Below, in pieces: positions 14,871 through 28,584 of a stretch of 64,000 nucleotides of DNA. How positions within the stretch are numbered: position 1 is the stretch's first letter; the number at the start of each line of letters is the position of its first letter. The notes below the pieces were generated by a model. That model had not been told where the DNA came from. It ran no database searches and worked only from the letters and a program-made list of their open reading frames with translations. This DNA comes from Curvularia clavata (lineage: Eukaryota). The position numbers and the translations under genes were made by a program. The stretch is taken from positions 248,001 through 312,000 of the forward strand of contig CP089280.1 of assembly GCA_023920165.1 (NCBI GenBank). Direction: 5' to 3'.

Positions 14871-16676
14871 ATGCTCGCTTACCGATACCAGCCACTACAG
14901 TGCAGCGACTCAATCCGTCTTCTTGTCCTTCATCCAAGTCCAACCCAGTTTGATCCCGTTCTATGTACAATACGACACAGTCGACTTTCTGACACATCCC
15001 TTAAGTACGAAGCATTGTCGTATACTTGGGGCGATGCCACTCAAAAGCGAGCAATCTGCTTCGATGACGGCTCCAGAGAATTGCTTGTCACGGAAAACTG
15101 TCACAGCGCCCTTCGGCACCTGCGCTACACTCATGAAGAGCGGTTGCTATGGGTAGACGCCATATGTATTAACCAGGAAAATCTTATGGAACGAGCAAGT
15201 CAGGTTTGCATGATGGATGAGATATTTGAACGCGCATTCAATGTCATGGTGTTCCTGGGAGAACTAGATTCGCGAAACAGTATTTTGTTCGAGGAACTAG
15301 CAGCAGGGGATGAAGTCATATCGCGCGTAGGACATTGCGACAGACCACCGCCGAGTAGGGTTGTCATTCAGCAGCTAGAGGAGCTGTTTCAAAATCCGTG
15401 GTTCAAAAGAGTTTGGGTATTGCAAGAAGTGTGTGCCAAAAGCTCCGTTACATTCATGTGCGGCTCCGCCCGCTTTTCCTACTTGAGTCTCCTAAATCTA
15501 TACATGGGTCATCGTGGGACGGTGGTGACTAAGGAATTCTGGCCTCTGACTACGCAGTGGATCCGCCAACCTCCGGAAGAGTTTTCAACACCACAGTTCA
15601 GCTTGTGGAATCGACTTGGCGAGAGTCGGAATTACTTGGCGACTGATCCCAGAGATCGAGTCTTTGCTCTGAAGTCTTTGATCGGTCTTGACCAGTCAAG
15701 AATGGATCGTCTGATCGACTATACGAGGAGCGTTGAGGAGTGCTTTACCGATGTTGCAACCTTTCTCCTACCTGTGCTAGGGCTTCGTTTGCTCACTGCT
15801 GCTCGTCATCCACACCGAAGACATATGCCGTCATGGATTCCAGATTGGTCTCAGACGCTTCCACTGCAGCTTTTGAGCTTTTTGGTTGAGTTTCCAAAAT
15901 CCAATGAGCCTGTGTCGCGCACCAGCGCTGCCAAAAAACAACGACACAAAATACAAGCATTCTTAACAGAGGACAACGAGCCTAGTCTAGAACTACATGT
16001 CACAGGCTGCCGTTATGCGCAAATAGTGAAAAGCAGTCAAGTTTTCCAGTTCAATAGCGGAGAGGATGCTATAAGACAGATGAAGAAGCTATACTACAGC
16101 CTGGATAATCTTAGGGGTTTCGTCGGTACGGAAAGCAAGATCTGTGATGATCCTACCATGTATCTGCCCCTCGATGAAGCTATCCTACATAGTAAGTACA
16201 AATTGCTCCTGCCCTTCGATTCTCCCTAACCAATTTGTAGCCATGAATTCTATGAGTGACATAGAACTCGATATGCACCTGAGGCGTGGGTCCTTGACCG
16301 GGATAGTAAGTCTAATTTTCCCATATATCGTGAAATCTTAGGCTGACATCAAAAGCATGTGTACTTTTTTTCGAACGTTGAAATCATGCGCGATTTATTC
16401 ACCTCCCTCCAAAATTGCAAGATCGCCCTTATGTGCGATGATGATTTGGTCATTGTGCCAGAGGCCGTACAACCTGGAGATATGATCTGCGTCCTTTCAG
16501 GAGCCATTTCACCATGCGCTCTACGAGCGTCTCCAGACGGAACCTGGAAACTTATCAGCGGCGACTGTTATATATTTACGGACCATTTTCGAGCGTATGG
16601 GGAGGAGTCATTCTTCATGTGCGACAAGTTTGTGGCGTGTAACGAGTATATGGCAGAAGAGTTTATACTGCGCTGA
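14871..16676 (+). CDS. HET-domain (HET-6-like) heterokaryon incompatibility protein
   Basis: IRLLVLHP, YEALSYTWG, LWVDAICINQ, WFKRVWVLQEV, ATDPRDRVFAL and PSWIPDWS motifs. Exons 14871-16191, 16241-16305, 16356-16676 (two GTAAGT...AG introns join in frame). Confidence 0.92.
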
Positions 16677-17327
16677 AGACACAAGCTCTACTGGCACCAC
16701 CTATGCCATATTTCTGACTCGCCTACTGTTGATGTACCGACTGGAGTAGCAATAACGACTCTTGCTATAGTATCTCCAGTTCTCGACTAGCAAGCCAGGC
16801 GACGCATAATGGCGAGTTTCATGTTATTGCGAAGGAATATGCTTCTTCTACTTATTTGTGAGAAATACATTTGATCTAGAGCAGCATTGCAAGTACTATG
16901 TAGGTGTCTCTGGTCGACGTCTCGACAGTCGTTGCTTCACCTTCTTACAAGTATCTTGATTGACCAAAACGCCGTCTAACAGAGATGTTCAGAGAGCGTG
17001 TATAGGCCAGCAGAGCCGATACTAGCTATCCGCTTTGTGTAATCCTTAGTAACTCTGAGGAGATGGCGGGCATATAACTCAATCCTGATCCGAACTCACT
17101 ATGTCAACAGTTGCATCTCAGATCGTCTCTGGCACCCCGCGCATAGCTCCAAACAGTCTAGAACAACAGTTTGGTCGTCTCTATACAACTCACCTGCTTC
17201 TCAAACCCTTGAAAATTTTCGATGTATAATTATTCGCACCACAAACCAAAACAACCGTTTGCGGACTACCACAAGCAGCTCACCTGGTTCCTTGCAAAGA
17301 AGCTTAGATATCGTCCAAGCAGCCTAA

Positions 17328-18152
17328 ATGCCACCACCAACTAATGCAGCCACTCACCCGTCCCTTGCCTCGCGGATGAAAGCCTATGAGGCAGAATATG
17401 ACCACACGCTACCTCTCGACAAGCCCATCATTCTTCGTCTCGATGGTCATGCCTTTTCCCGGTTCACGTCACATTTCGCGCGCCCTTTTGACTCGCGCAT
17501 CCACCTCGCCATGACATCCACCAGCAGTGACTTGCTCCGGTACTTTCCCCAAGCCACAGTCGCGTACACGCAATCCGATGAAATCACCCTTGTCTTCCCA
17601 GAAGGCGTGCAGTCTTTTAATGAGCGCGTGCAGAAACTCTGCAGCCTAAGCGCGAGCTACTGTTCCGTGCGGTTCCACGCGCACCTCGCTGCCTATCTGG
17701 AGAGCATGCCGGACCCCCCTGTAGTTGCAGGTGACGGCGATGTGGCAGAGCTGCTGTCAACAGTACATTTCGACGCTCGTCTGTTTGCTGTGCCGGATGT
17801 TCACGAGGCTGTGAACAATCTCATTTGGCGCTGTCGCAATGACGCCGTGCGCAATGCTGTTTCTGCTTTCGCGCGAACTATGTTTTCCACAGAGGAGATG
17901 CACGGAAAGAAGTCGCAGCAGCTTATCGATGCGATGTTAGCAGAGAAAGGGGTTAGGTTCGAGGATGCGGTGCCAAAGTGGGCAATTGAGGGTTGTTTGA
18001 TTAAAAGAGAGCAGCACGAGCATGAGGGTGTGAATCCAAAGACGGGGATGACGGAGAAGACGATGAGGACGAGAACAAGGATTGAGCAGCATGGGGTCAG
18101 GGTCTTTAATGAGGAGGCCATCAAGATAGTCACGGAAAAGTACTGGTGGTAG
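17328..18152 (+). CDS. Thg1-like protein (TLP), tRNA guanylyltransferase / 3'-5' RNA polymerase family
   Basis: Intronless 274-aa ORF with RMKAYE, RLDGHAFSRFT, RPFD, AYTQSDEITL, FDARLF and WRCRNDAVRN motifs. It lacks the HINNLYN motif of canonical eukaryotic Thg1. Confidence 0.9.
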   Translation: MPPPTNAATHPSLASRMKAYEAEYDHTLPLDKPIILRLDGHAFSRFTSHFARPFDSRIHLAMTSTSSDLLRYFPQATVAYTQSDEITLVFPEGVQSFNERVQKLCSLSASYCSVRFHAHLAAYLESMPDPPVVAGDGDVAELLSTVHFDARLFAVPDVHEAVNNLIWRCRNDAVRNAVSAFARTMFSTEEMHGKKSQQLIDAMLAEKGVRFEDAVPKWAIEGCLIKREQHEHEGVNPKTGMTEKTMRTRTRIEQHGVRVFNEEAIKIVTEKYWW

Positions 18153-18366
18153 GAACTTGGTCTTACGCTGGGCATACATCACTATCGCCAACGAGAAGGA
18201 AAAGCCCATTGCGCTGTCATGACTACAAAAGATACGCCATGAACAAAAGAAAGAAAACATAACCAACGCTCACATGTAACTGCATTTCGCACTACCATAT
18301 CATACCCCTCCATCCTAGCCATCTAGCCCAATCCCGCCAAAAACAAACCTCTCTTGTCGAGGCGAC

Positions 18367-18374
18367 AAAAAAAA
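18367..18374 (-). terminator. Pol III oligo-T terminator of tRNA-Pro
   Basis: T8 run on the minus strand, 7 nt downstream of the tRNA 3' end. Confidence 0.7.
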
Positions 18375-18381
18375 GAAGATG

Positions 18382-18538
18382 GGGCCTGACCGGGATTCGA
18401 CTACAACGCATGTTAGAGACTGCGTTCGTATTCTGAACCAGAATGGGTGATAACTTACACCCGGGGCCTCCTGCAGAATAGGCTTTGCAGAGTAATAGCG
18501 TACCCAAAGCAGGAATCATACCACTAGACCATCAGGCC
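18382..18538 (-). tRNA. tRNA-Pro(TGG) with a 27-nt canonical intron (18476-18502) and a 58-nt spliceosomal-type intron in the T-loop (18401-18458)
   Basis: Removing both inserts gives a 72-nt cloverleaf GGCCTGATGGTCTAGTGGTATGATTCCTGCTTTGGGTGCAGGAGGCCCCGGGTTCGAATCCCGGTCAGGCCC: acceptor GGCCTGA/TCAGGCC, anticodon stem CCTGC/GCAGG, T stem CCGGG/CCCGG. 70/72 identical to the copy at 28500-28584. Confidence 0.9.
18401..18458 (-). other. Spliceosomal (U2-type) intron-like insertion within the tRNA T-loop
   Basis: Minus strand GTAAGTTATCACCCATTCTGGTTCAGAATACGAACGCAGTCTCTAACATGCGTTGTAG: GTAAGT donor, CTAAC branch point 11 nt before the end, TAG acceptor. Length is typical of the mRNA introns in this window. 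Confidence 0.85.
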
Positions 18539-18953
18539 GGATTTTGGTTGCTCTTAAGGGAACACGATTGATGGGAGGAGGGCAGGCCTGAAAGAATATG
18601 AAGCGAGCGAAATGAGGGGGCTTTCGTCTGATGTGAGACGGAATGAGTCGAGGTGGGGGGAAAGGGGTAAGCGAGAGTGTGGAATGACTGTGCTGTGGGT
18701 ACCTACCCCTCACTGCTTTCCTTTGTTCGCTTGGATACGAGTACGAAGGTCCGCGCTTGTACGCCAGCTATGACTCTCGACTACCAGCAGGTCAAAAAAT
18801 GCAGCAGTCGAAGGACAATAGCCAAAGGATTGACGCATAGTGCAATTGAAATTGGTATCTCGTAATGTTGCAGGTCATGGTCCCGTTACGACATGTACAC
18901 ATTACAACGAAATATAAAAATACAACCACCGTGTTCTTCTCCCTCTTTGGCCT

Positions 18954-21836
18954 CTATGTCAGATCCAGGACTTCTACAGCACTTTCTCTCCACTTGCGTC
19001 TGTCTTTGCCTTTGAGTAGGGCCTCTGGGGATGCCTTTTCCGGTCTCTCCGGGCTGTCAATGTCTGCAAAGTCCCAAGCACCCACTACACTTCTTCGAAG
19101 TATGATGGCGCGCTTCTTCTTACTCTGAGCCTTCCATGCTGCCGGTGGTGATATAGGTTTCTGTGCAGGTGGTGATTGGTCCACTGATGAGTGCGACGAA
19201 TGTGTTGGATGAGGAGACGCGGGCGTTGCGTTCGTCGCCTGTGGCCCTGGCGCTCGCTCTCCTGCGGGCGACGAGCGTTCCGTTAGGTCAAGCACATCCA
19301 GCTTCGGAGACGCTGATCTTGGTTTTGCTGCTGCAGGATTGGGAGAAGTAAGGTCTAGGGTGTCGGGACTGGATGTCGTTTTGCTGAGACGTGGCGAAGT
19401 ACGGCGAGGTGGATTTGGATCGAAAACATCTTTGATACTCTTCTTTTTACCCAACGTGGATGTCGACGAAGTGGAACTTGTAGATGCATTTGACGATATC
19501 GAAGTCAAAGGCGGTCGTATTGTCGACGATCTCACAGATGGTTGCTCGCTGGTAGTATGCCGTGCGGCTTCTGGACGCCTTGGTGATGAGAGAGTCAAGT
19601 CCAACGATTCAACGTCTTTGGATGGTTGTCGAAGTTGTGATTTGGTAGGGACTGGCGCTTGAAACAATAAAGGAGTTGCACCTCGCTGCTTAGTTGGTGA
19701 CACTGATGCCCGCCATGCATCCAAGGTGGCTTGCATTGGCACAGACGAGTCGCGAGACGCCCTCGTTGTAGATGCGTATTTCTCTGTCCTTGTCTTGGCC
19801 TTCTTCGCCGGCAGCGGCGAAGGCGAAGGATGTGCCGGAGAGTCAATCAAGTCCAGTGTTTCTATCGTCTTCGGGAGTGGAGGCGTGGAAGGTCGGTCCA
19901 AGATCGTACTAGTATCGGCCGGTAATGTCTTTGAGCGCTGAAATGGAGCTCGCCTTCTCCTTTTTGCTACACTTGGAGGCAGGTCTCCTATGACTGGAGA
20001 CGGTGACTTTTCGCGCCCGGGTGAGGACTCTGGTGTTGTGGTCCGTGGTCTCACTGGCGGCGAGGACAACAGGTCGATTGTCTCGTTGTACGACGCTTCA
20101 GCAGGCGGAGATGCACGTGCTGGGGGATGATCAACCTTGTCTTGCGCCTTCGCGAGTGCTCGTGAGGCTCTCAACCCAGGTTTTGTGACCTTTGCGAAGG
20201 CTTCTATGCGAACTTGCGGTTGATCCTTAGTCGCCTTGGTCCGTTTCGTGGTAGTCCTGGCTTTTGGTGCGGTAGAGTCAGTGTGCTGAACTGGTGCTGC
20301 CCGTCTAGGTTTCTGCTTTGTCTGTCGCCCAGCCTCCCAGTCCTGAACTTTGAGCGGCACGCCGACCTTGACAAATGTCTCCATGACCCATATACGTGCC
20401 GGTTTTTCAGGATCGAATTTGGTGGGCCCACGTTTCTTAGGGCCGTCGTCCTCCAAGTCCAAAGGAATTTCTTCGTCGAGATCCTCATCTCCGGCGCCTT
20501 GTTGGGAACTAGGTGGTGGTAGGTCTATATCGTCGTCTGGATCTTCCTGACTAAGATCTATCTTCACAAGCTCAACAGGAGTGAAGCTTACGCGAAGCTC
20601 CGTACAATGGTCAGTGATCGCGTGCTGTCGTTTGCCGTGAAGTCCTTTGATGAGAGTTTCTTCATCCTCTTGTATGGCTTGTAGGTTATTAGTAGGCAGG
20701 CGATCGACTCGCTCAGCGCGCATCCGAAGTTCGCGCACGACGAGAGAGGGTGCCAAACTGCGAATAAAGTGTTTTGCGCCCTCGAGCTTGGCCCAATCGA
20801 AAGCATCTTGTGTGAACTCGCGCAGACCTGGAAAGTCGAGCTCCTGATCCCAGTTGATTGACCGACGTAACTTGTCCAGTCCAGCTTGGTTCGAGATTGC
20901 AGGATGCGTGTAGTACCCCAGAATATCCATTCGGGGAAAATCGTCTGGAATCTTGAGCGCACCATGCTTGCGTTTGAAAAACTTGCTCTCGTTTGTTTTT
21001 AGCTCGTGCTGTAATCGTTCCCTCCATTGGGATATAGCTCTGGAGTCGTTTCTGGGGATCCTGCACAATTCGGCACCAAAACCTGCCTTCGCGGCCTCGC
21101 ATGCAGTCTTGGGTCCGCAGCCAGGTATACCCTCCGGCACATAATCTCCTCCACTCATCAGAGCAACCAAGATCATGCCTTCGCGATCCAATCCAGAAGG
21201 CCCGTTTTTGGTTTCGACCGCATCGTATACGTTGACATGGGTTGGCGTCTTTCCTGATTTTTCTGGAGACCAATTTCGGAGGGTCACACCACTCCCAAAC
21301 ATGAGCGTATCCACATCCTCGCTCAGGACAGCGTCAACGATGCCTTCTCGTTGTAGTAAAGCGCACTCTGCCTCTGCCTCGCCTGGGGCCAGATGTATTG
21401 GGTATCCGAACTGCTTCAGCAGCTGTTTGGCGAGAAACTCGGGGATAGAAGCAACATTTGGACCGGTGCGTTTGTTGCGCTTGAAGGGTGGTTTATTTGG
21501 TCCATCAAAGACAAAGACGGGGTGGATCGCGAGGGAGATCAAGCGCAGGAGGCGGTAGTAAAAGGTTCGCAACGCAGGATTCGTGCCACCTGGTCGTATT
21601 CAGCATTCCGATGTATGCGCATGTCTCGAGAGACTCACCTTTGCTAGCTTGGATCTGGAAAAGCCAGATGGATGTGTCAATAGCGATGCGCAACGGGCGG
21701 CCAGTCTCTTCGAATTTTTCGACGGCGAGCTTGGACAGGGCTATGCGTGTGCCGGGGCCGATTTCTTTGTAGATGCTGCTAGTGTTAGAACTGGATCGCG
21801 AGATGCCGCACGCTCGACTTACCCGTGGATACCCAT
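18954..21836 (-). CDS. YEN1: XPG/Rad2-family Holliday junction resolvase (Yen1/GEN1)
   Basis: MGIHG...RIAIDTSIW N domain, PVFVFDG, APGEAEAECA, SEDVDTLMFG, GGDYVPEGIPGCG, long disordered tail. Introns at ~21822-21776 and 21638-21590. Confidence 0.9.
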
Positions 21837-22034
21837 TGCGACTCCATGCTCAGTCCTTCAACTGTCGAGCCGGCTGCCTTGTTCAATGTTGCGACCAGCG
21901 CGTGGTGATTAGATTGTTGCCACGACAACAACGCGTCGGCCGTCCCGCATGCCCACGGGTGCACGTTGATTCCCCACCACGCCGACCCTCTCGCACTAAC
22001 ACAACGCCCATCATCTTCACAAAGACCCTTGAAC

Positions 22035-27314: not shown

Positions 27315-28499
27315 AAGGGAATATGGCACATGTTTCACCGGAGAAGATGGCAGTGCAAGAGCATAACATCTTTTCAGATCCCTGCAAAGGGTAGCACAGT
27401 ACTTCGGGTTAGCATAACCTGAAGCTGTACAGTTCTGTTAGGCAAACAGAGCGGCCGATGAAGCATGACGGTAAAAAGTCTTGTGGAGGCTCCCCTAGGA
27501 CGAGTTCGCATCTTACCGCGATCTAGGGGTACGGCAAGACAACCACTCTTGTCGCCAAGACGAACTCATCGATGCCACTTGCGTTCCCTAATTGCGATAG
27601 TATAGATTGACAGGAAGGAAGGTGCAATACCATTCCCACAAGCGAGAACTGAGGCACGCAAGCATTGTGTAATACACTAAGAATTGTTCTTCTATTCGCC
27701 CAGCTAGTCAGAACATGAGCCGATGACCTGAGTAGCTACTTGCAGAATCATACTATAGCTGCTCTCTCAGCCTAAGCCTGCTATAAGTAATTCGGAAGAA
27801 GTGGCAGATATCTCATAATTTTAGCCAAAGTACCGAAGCGCAAGTCTTATTTGTCACATGGCACAGCATACAATGAGAAGCGTGGCTTGATCAATACAAC
27901 TGTATTTGGGCTACAGACTGAGTTGTCGTTAGCGCCCAAGGCAATGCCATGGTTTGACAAGCTGTTGCACACTGAACTGGCTTCGCTGTATTTTTCGTTG
28001 TTTTACAAAATAAACTACTTTTACCTAAGCAATAGTTAGTCTTTCTATCTTCTATGACTCCTTTCACGTAAGCTCTTCCTATTTTTGCTTGCAATGATAA
28101 TAGCATGCTATAGCAAATGGTAGGCGAAATGGCTTCCTACACAACCTAAACGGCTAGAAGGTGCAGTTCATATCCTACATACAAAGACAGCGTGTATAAG
28201 CTGTAGTCGGAAATGGGATAGGCAGGGCGCTAACGCAAAGAAGAAATCCATAGAGCTACTAAGCTGAGCGCACGCAACTCTCAACCTTTCCAACTGTAGC
28301 TGTTAACGATTCACACAACATCTCTGATATAAAAAATGCATCAACCCAGAGATTACTTAACAAGATAACTAAAATCTCCTTAGTCTGGCGTTCTGTACGC
28401 TAAAAAGAACAAAAAGAAAATTTGACATGATTCGAAGGGAATCTCAGCCTCCTTAAAGATATGCAGACAAAAATAAAAAAAGAAAGCCAATTATCCAAG

Positions 28500-28584
28500 G
28501 GGCCTGACCGGGATTTGAACCCGGGGCCTCCTGCAGTTTAGATGCGAACCCAAAGCAGGAATCATACGACTAGACCATCAGGCC
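28500..28584 (-). tRNA. tRNA-Pro(TGG) with a 13-nt canonical intron (28536-28548) and a G18-to-C variant in the D-loop
   Basis: GGCCTGATGGTCTAGTCGTATGATTCCTGCTTTGGG[TTCGCATCTAAAC]TGCAGGAGGCCCCGGGTTCAAATCCCGGTCAGGCCC. Intact B box; T-runs downstream at ~28469-28481. Confidence 0.92.

Follow-up and report, generated by a model that had tools for sequence, protein, structure and literature searches.

Introduction

The introns that lie in the arms of tRNAs of Cyanidioschyzon merolae and of archaea carry bulge-helix-bulge motifs and are of the endonuclease type. In C. merolae the arm introns are described, in the accessible text on that system, as being processed before the anticodon intron (PMC9602550), and the accessible part of a 2026 review treats tRNA splicing as independent of the spliceosome (PMC13149111). 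Spliceosomal introns have been described in fungal U6, U1, U2 and U5 snRNA genes and in rRNA genes (PMC5855946), and the available text of a 2017 paper states that, among small structured RNAs, frequent interruption is known for U3 and U6 alone, the U3 introns being thought functionally neutral (PMC5832005). Our search of the literature, made in a collection with few subscription journals, returned no description of tRNA genes with spliceosomal introns, and a phrase search gave as its sole match 'non-spliceosomal tRNA introns'.

Here we describe a tRNA-Pro(UGG) gene, in a stretch of 64,000 nucleotides of Curvularia clavata DNA (the window), that contains a spliceosomal-type intron in its T loop in addition to a canonical tRNA intron. 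The introns of U6, as in S. pombe (Canzler et al. 2016; PMC5855946), likewise bring a canonical donor, branch site and acceptor into a small structured RNA, and U6 is described there as likewise a Pol III transcript that can be interrupted at several positions and by several introns per gene. Fungal U3 snoRNA likewise has GT-AG introns in a structured non-coding RNA, and these are reported to be common in Pezizomycotina (PMC5832005).

Results

Structure of the tRNA-Pro(UGG) gene

The gene lies on the minus strand at 18538-18382 and has three exons. Exon 1 (18503..18538, positions 1-37, anticodon TGG at 18506-18504), defined by ARAGORN on insert-free sequence, is followed by a canonical endonuclease-type tRNA intron of 27 nt at 37/38 (18476..18502, ARAGORN); exon 2 (18459..18475, positions 38-54) ends in the 5' strand of the T stem plus U54, and exon 3 (18382..18400) supplies positions 55-73. 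Exons 2 and 3 are separated by a GT-AG spliceosomal-type intron of 58 nt (18401..18458), placed in the T loop between U54 and U55 by an RNA joint and by metagenome loci. Its 5' splice site is GTAAGT (18453..18458), as read from the sequence and from related introns, its branch site is CTAAC (18412..18416; CTRAY in relatives) with the branch A at 18413, at a distance of 12 nt from the end of the intron, and it terminates in TAG. On unedited genomic sequence ARAGORN makes no tRNA call at 18538-18382, and after deletion of 18458-18401 the call is tRNA-Pro(tgg), complete and interrupted at 37/38 by an intron of 27 nt. An Rfam search of the 64-kb window gave nothing reaching the gathering score, the sole match at this locus being a chance miRNA (E 2.3). 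Once the introns are removed the cloverleaf is complete; the exons are conserved, being identical in 9/9 aligned genes except at position 73, and a Pol III terminator-like run of eight T follows at 18367..18374. Judged by these sequence features, the gene is probably functional and would yield a mature tRNA. The final 8 nt of the canonical intron (GCCTATTC, 18476-18483, minus strand) are invariant in the same number of genes (9/9), and the remainder of that intron ranges in length from 14 to 50 nt across the nine.

Related genes and genomic surroundings

Metagenome sequence was scanned with a pattern that specified the T-arm halves together with GT and YAG, the last two separated by 40-70 unconstrained bases, and nothing else, such that neither a donor hexamer (beyond GT) nor a branch consensus was required. 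The scan gave 36 loci (given here by L numbers), 33 of which are tRNA genes for Pro-UGG, Pro-CGG, Gly-GCC or Gly-CCC; L002, L008 and L014 were set aside as chance matches. ARAGORN reports the correct isotype in 14 of the 33 after removal of the insert, and the others, which have additional GT-AG inserts or are truncated, were read by eye. All 25 distinct introns have a fungal-standard donor (GTAAGT in 19, GTATGT in three, and otherwise GTAAGC, GTGAGT or GTTAGT), and CTRAY is present in 24/25, with the branch A 10-12 nt from the intron end. A GTRWGT-like donor, CTRAY at a short fixed distance from YAG, and precise removal in RNA (below) are among the features of major, U2-type introns. The 4-bp helix of a bulge-helix-bulge motif, looked for in one register, is incomplete: 3/4 pairs form in the window (two of them G-U), 0-2/4 in 31/33 loci, and 3/4 in L027 and L036. 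No second copy of the intron pattern was found within the 64-kb window, and a match search against viral contigs gave 0.

Some of these genes contain further GT-AG introns, situated after position 6 (L003, L005), after position 11 (L015, L018, L019, L022, L024), after position 21 (L034), after position 34 (L009, L012, L017, L021, L032) or in the 5' part (L007, L013); one class of these interrupts the anticodon and one the A box, and some genes have three introns.

The window gene is flanked by a GEN1/YEN1-like resolvase gene (last exon, 18954..21599, minus strand; Pfam GEN1_C and XPG_I), whose stop lies 415 nt upstream on the same strand, and by a convergent Thg1-like gene (17328..18152, plus strand; Pfam Thg1, tblastn), which served as a synteny marker and adjoins the tRNA gene in eight loci. 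The Atlas clusters closest to the Thg1-like protein are mostly viral, as judged by their few labelled members, and the Thg1 protein of L001, 76% identical to that of the window, carries the label Alternaria alternata. A second tRNA-Pro(UGG) gene in the window (28499-28584, minus strand, ARAGORN) has no T-loop intron and is a C18/A57 variant. The same variant, with C18 in place of the usual G18, is seen in L007, L009, L015, L018, L019, L021 and L024, and being recurrent across loci it is not a sequencing error. L001 also contains, at 1000-1160 on the minus strand and 1.4 kb from its intact gene, a mutated and truncated tRNA-Pro copy that stops about 12 nt inside the T-loop intron.

Removal of the T-loop intron in RNA

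RNA contigs of four of the 23 listed runs (X5, X7, X21 and X22) were aligned to 16000-22000. In two of the four, X5 and X7, which come from two studies, position 18400 is joined to 18459 and exactly 58 bases are skipped, with 195-200 locus-specific bases on the shorter side of the joint. These contigs represent RNA, because four ordinary mRNA introns are also skipped in X5 and three in X7. The 58-nt intron is therefore removed precisely in RNA contigs, and the catalyst is very probably the spliceosome. The joint may also derive from an intron-loss allele in those strains.

The X5/X7 joint sits in contigs of about 3.5 kb that extend into the GEN1 mRNA upstream and, lacking the T-loop intron, still retain the canonical tRNA intron. 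The GEN1-like RNA contigs run some 750 nt beyond the stop, crossing the tRNA gene together with the T run behind it and reaching about 18201, and the spliced contigs may thus be the 3' UTR of GEN1 mRNA rather than spliced pre-tRNA. In this region (18201-18953) the contig end meets that of the Thg1-like transcript, which converges on it with its 3' end. The suggestion, made from the sequence alone, that the spliceosome acts first, before cloverleaf folding, RNase P and SEN, is consistent with the retention of the canonical intron in spliced contigs, but it loses force to the extent that these are mRNA 3' UTR. Such an order would in any case need no hairpins, because an insertion of 58 nt at this point would by itself be expected to block tRNA-like folding. 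X21 and X22 contain only an unspliced stretch of 176-221 nt, which spans the tRNA gene, has its end near 18555 and leaves the neighbouring mRNAs uncovered; this fits a separate tRNA precursor. X7 has in addition a loose contig end at 18382 with a different T-rich trailer, which points to a third tRNA-Pro locus in the same species.

If the intron were spliced solely as an intron of a read-through GEN1 3' UTR, and the tRNA gene were silent or a pseudogene, the GEN1-linked contigs with their canonical intron intact, the unspliced state of the short X21/X22 precursor contigs and the existence of an intron-less paralogue would all be accounted for. We regard this as very improbable, since the exons are invariant across lineages whose synonymous sites are saturated, the short contigs cover the tRNA gene without neighbouring mRNAs, like a separate precursor, and gene order and orientation vary. 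The intron is present in L022 and L034 although GEN1 there lies downstream on the opposite strand, and in L010 and L035 there is no upstream ORF within 1.4-1.7 kb; the intron thus travels with the tRNA and not with GEN1.

Predicted folding of the intron and the precursor

The sequence-only reading had proposed that the T-loop intron folds into three consecutive hairpins that display the splice signals. All three stems exist where it placed them on the minus strand, and they make up the minimum free energy (MFE) structure of the 62-mer: hairpin 1 (18445..18462) pairs GGGTG at 18462-18458 (exon -4..-1 plus G+1) with CACCC at 18449-18445, hairpin 2 (18430..18444) pairs ATTCTG at 18444-18439 with CAGAAT at 18435-18430, and hairpin 3 (18405..18426) pairs AACGCA at 18426-18421 with TGCGTT at 18410-18405 around the branch site. 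The 62-mer also folds better than shuffled sequence (-19.0 kcal/mol, z -3.14), with 1/200 shuffles as good and 1.2% of 5000 shuffles matching its energy when the splice signals are held fixed. The z depends on the ends, those of the 62-mer being the best among 30 choices (z -3.56); for the intron by itself z is -0.95 to -1.2, and for the intron with 15-20 nt of 5' exon -0.6 to -1.4. Nearly all of the folding signal of the 62-mer comes from hairpin 1.

The full precursor is predicted to fold differently. Hairpin 1 has a probability of 1.00 and hairpin 3 of 0.45-1.00 per pair, and hairpin 2 falls to 0.02-0.05, because the intron segment GGTTC(A)GA (18432..18439, minus strand, conserved) pairs instead with bases 1-7 of exon 3 (18400-18394), a helix that the earlier reading had overlooked. 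Hairpin 3 is nested within this intron:exon-3 helix, which has a probability of 0.88 in the window precursor. On these predictions hairpin 2 is an artefact of cutting the sequence at the intron end. Only 55.6% of its cells are paired in orthologues, and the natural allele of X21 and X22 at 18433 breaks its centre pair and drops it from the MFE structure, with the intron:exon-3 helix persisting at 0.71. Two hairpins of the proposed three therefore hold, and the consecutive arrangement is not the fold of the precursor. An internal alternative to hairpin 2 (TTCG/YGAA) was rejected, being 79.6% paired with no covariation and having a probability of 0.00-0.02 in full precursors.

Hairpin 3 does enclose the branch point in a 10-nt loop as proposed, but exposure of the branch A does not follow: A18413 is 41% unpaired, because two extra pairs form within that loop. 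The proposed competition between hairpin 1 and the T stem is borne out in the calculations, the two being mutually exclusive, with a T-stem probability of 0.00 and a cost of 8.3 kcal/mol for forcing it. Loss of the T stem is not special to this intron, since it also falls below 0.05 with 18/32 control introns and with 108/200 shuffled introns. The predicted precursor fold nonetheless has closed acceptor and anticodon stems.

Conservation of the pairings

The 11 distinct introns of the Pleosporales Pro-UGG family were aligned (alignment A2, without the duplicates L011, L017 and L033, without L027 and L036, and without all other gene families); L027 and L036, which have the same exons, unalignable introns and no fold, are included in alignment A1. 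Nine of the ten other A2 loci share Thg1 or GEN1 as a neighbour. Controls were 32 pattern-defined candidate introns from the window and the loci, a stricter set being 21. Fourfold-degenerate sites of the neighbour genes are 0.28-0.52 identical to the window, and the interior of the T-loop intron is alignable in 19/21 species pairs as against 3/21 for the variable part of these genes' canonical intron. The T-loop intron is thus constrained in its interior, being alignable where synonymous sites are near-saturated and the canonical intron has decayed.

This constraint is seen in both exon pairings. In hairpin 1 all 55 cells are paired in the 11 sequences, five of them being one-sided and G-U-compatible, and its intron arm has four changes and no transversions, compared with 13 and 8 in the next five spacer columns (binomial 0.004, Fisher 0.08). 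Among the controls 1/32 forms hairpin 1 with the tRNA exon, and 4/32 reach a similar -9 kcal/mol when a longer exon arm is used. At 12 further GT-AG introns of tRNA genes the junction hairpins are weak (-0.6 to -5.3 kcal/mol; controls -3.2 +/- 1.7), and hairpin 1 is therefore not general. For the second pairing, the start of exon 3 has its reverse complement in the family consensus GNTTCGA; 77/91 cells (84.6%) are paired in 13 sequences including the non-folding L027 and L036, and the helix has a probability of 0.52-1.00 in 11/11 family precursors. Hairpin 1 above 0.9 together with the exon-3 helix above 0.5 occurs in 11/11 family precursors, in 0/32 controls and in 0/200 shuffles. The two exon pairings are conserved in the family at the level of sequence, and it is probable that the conserved blocks work as RNA pairings, all the structures being predicted ones.

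For the whole three-hairpin structure 229/500 shuffles reach the covariation score, and RNAalifold on the family keeps hairpin 1 only, without any two-sided change; the exon arms are invariant, such that a two-sided change in them is nearly impossible. Two-sided changes were seen once in hairpin 3 (L032) and once between Pro and Gly genes, and family covariation is not significant. In the Pro/Gly case the tRNA-Gly(GCC) introns of L003 and L005 have the same two-pairing layout in different letters. Exon A59 lies opposite an intron T in 11/11 Pro genes and exon T59 opposite A or G in Gly genes, each of the 11 Pro introns pairs more strongly with a 3' exon of Pro than with one of Gly, and the Gly introns pair with their own 3' exon at 0.95 and 0.94 against 0.64 and 0.68 with the Pro exon, such that swapping exons weakens pairing both ways. 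When the Gly introns were added to the MAFFT alignment the arm was not in register, for which reason the case for compensation is made by duplex and ensemble calculations and not by pair count. It represents one or two events, in introns that are weakly alignable with each other (z 2-3).

Hairpin 3 is 71% paired in the register first proposed, and its register shifts between family members. In 11/11 precursors the branch site is enclosed by about 5-8.5 pairs, at least five doing so in 4/32 controls, and the claimed stem around the branch region is to this extent retained, although L022, L034 and L026 have a paired branch A. The claimed display of the splice signals likewise applies to part of the family: donor positions +2..+6 are unpaired at 0.99 or above in 8/11 family introns (at 0.9 or above in 4/32 controls), but the donor stem extends to +3 in those same three loci, and in Gly introns to +5. 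A strict form of the three-hairpin model, with local hairpins looping out the donor and branch point for U1 and U2 and so speeding splicing, would gain from the open donors, from the enrichment of branch-enclosing pairs and from the two-sided change in L032. With hairpin 2 not conserved, the branch A at least 0.8 unpaired in only 7/11 family introns against 16/32 controls, and the donor partly buried in three of the 11 and in both Gly introns, we consider this model improbable.

Thirteen of the 26 distinct T-loop introns are without the fold, namely L027, L036, six of a second Pro-UGG family, three of Pro-CGG, L013 and L029; the fold is therefore not needed for T-loop introns as such. In some members of the second Pro family (L015, L018, L019, L024) the branch site CTAAC and the acceptor GTTAG form a 5-bp hairpin with each other. 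That half of the introns lack the fold would be expected if the pairings were a functionless relic of intron origin, either from an introner-like element or from an inverted duplication of the near-palindromic T arm. Introner-like elements of Dothideomycetes are described as structured and as decaying into ordinary introns (PMC3609843), and C-rich introns pair easily with G-rich exon ends, as the controls that reach -9 kcal/mol illustrate. Such an origin without function has, in our estimate, a small chance of being correct. The conserved blocks have persisted while synonymous sites approached saturation and the canonical intron of the gene decayed, no intron copy outside tRNA genes appeared when the region was compared with the loci by blastn, and the intron alone is not unusually stable in any of the 11 family introns (z -1.3 to +0.6), unlike the stable structure that marks introner-like elements.

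Promoter elements and transcript ends

The T-loop intron interrupts the B box, leaving the gene without the intact internal B box of a type 2 Pol III promoter. A role for the middle intron block as a DNA element is to be considered, in which GNTTCGA, taken either in the forward direction or as the 3' half of the interrupted box in inverted form, would serve as a partial B box and restore the binding of TFIIIC, hairpin 1 being separate or incidental. A B block within an intron is described for S. pombe U6 (PMC5855946), the introns of L009 and L021 hold a full GTTCGAATC and that of L034 an inverted match, and the second Pro-UGG family, two members of which have the full intronic B box, keeps GTTCGAAT though it is unpairable with its own exon 3. 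TCGA is moreover palindromic, such that the B-box and pairing readings overlap, and a run of five or more T, 24-34 nt past the 3' splice site, is retained in 26/27 genes, the 27th being truncated by the contig end. Nevertheless a promoter role is unlikely to be the explanation. In the tRNA-Pro family no full B-box core is present on the coding strand from -250 to +350 in any of 14 genes, G53 occurs in 3/11 and C61 in none when the block is read forward, and G53 occurs in 1/11 when it is read as inverted. The position facing exon A59, which is free of B-box constraint, is T in 11/11 and changes with the exon in Gly genes, and hairpin 1 would be left unexplained.

Upstream of about nine genes a TATA-like element and a YCATC(C)AA/YCATCAA motif lie 26-28 nt apart (loci L001, L003, L005, L010, L015, L016, L017, L021, L022 and L031), and in the window the motif CCATCAAT at 18567..18574 (minus strand) marks a probable start region. 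The YCATCAA motif resembles the Pol II initiator consensus. A similar TCATCA motif also precedes the intron-less paralogue, and the motif was rejected as a Pol II marker, since it does not indicate the polymerase. The leader of the tRNA-Pro family, at 26-36 nt, is longer than that of other families, and between the YCATCAAT motif and position 1 a leader hairpin was recognised by eye in the window (18539-18574, minus strand; arms TGTTC/GAGCA) and in L001, L010, L017, L022, L026, L032 and L034, the arms being of the CTCT/AGAG type.

Discussion

The account that we favour, by a narrow measure of confidence for the whole, is that a spliceosome-removed intron has been selected to pair with both tRNA exons and thereby holds the precursor in a non-tRNA form. 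The T-loop intron would be excised by the major spliceosome from a tRNA-Pro(UGG) gene of the two-intron type. Its CRYCC block would pair with the end of the 5' exon to give hairpin 1, which could happen once 14 intron bases are transcribed and hence well ahead of the synthesis of the T stem's 3' strand. GNTTCGA would then capture the start of exon 3, closing a rod around hairpin 3 and the branch site, such that the T arm is replaced by two exon-intron helices while the acceptor and anticodon stems close. The precursor would be held compact and defined but not as a tRNA, with its splice sites in short helices that the spliceosome could open, and thus not beside a continuous acceptor-plus-T-stem helix. 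Splicing would remove both complementary blocks together and allow the T arm and elbow to form, with end trimming and removal of the canonical intron coming after the spliceosomal step, as in the sequence of events described for C. merolae arm introns (PMC9602550). For the holding or ordering role itself, which is drawn from the predicted folds, our confidence stops a little short of even, and a general preference of fungal splice sites for weak local folding, as described in the accessible text of one study (PMC4574748), counts against a fold at these sites.

A broader proposal, which we put forward more tentatively still, is that there is a fungal class of tRNAs without an intact B box that is matured by the spliceosome, and that the family intron is an anti-T-arm switch gating the supply of tRNA-Pro(UGG) and tRNA-Gly(GCC) through structure-controlled and possibly regulated splicing, perhaps of Pol II or TATA-driven transcripts. 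If that were true, the supply of these two tRNAs would be gated at splicing. Genes split in this way escape standard tools, as the window gene escaped ARAGORN and Rfam, and the tRNA sets of many filamentous fungi are possibly undercounted. The split B box raises the question of which polymerase transcribes these genes and how the spliceosome reaches tRNA transcripts, and the conserved exon-intron pairings offer mutable handles on it. The L001 orthologue lies beside the protein labelled Alternaria alternata, a species for which many strains exist.

Two further known systems are close to the present one. The introns in the D and T arms of C. merolae and archaeal tRNAs likewise include T-arm introns and likewise occur several to a gene, in the accessible description (PMC9602550), but the tRNA-Pro T-loop intron is, in the one register examined, without a bulge-helix-bulge and conserves spliceosomal signals. 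The introner-like elements of Dothideomycetes belong to the same fungal class and are likewise short spliceosomal introns with predicted structure, as far as the available texts describe them (PMC3609843, PMC4457414). Unlike these, the T-loop intron shows no evidence, within the window, of many near-identical copies, its sequence has been conserved over long times, and its predicted stability comes from pairing with the exons. To what has been described for introns in small structured RNAs, the present study adds an exact RNA joint within a tRNA gene and a conserved pairing of the intron with both of its exons.
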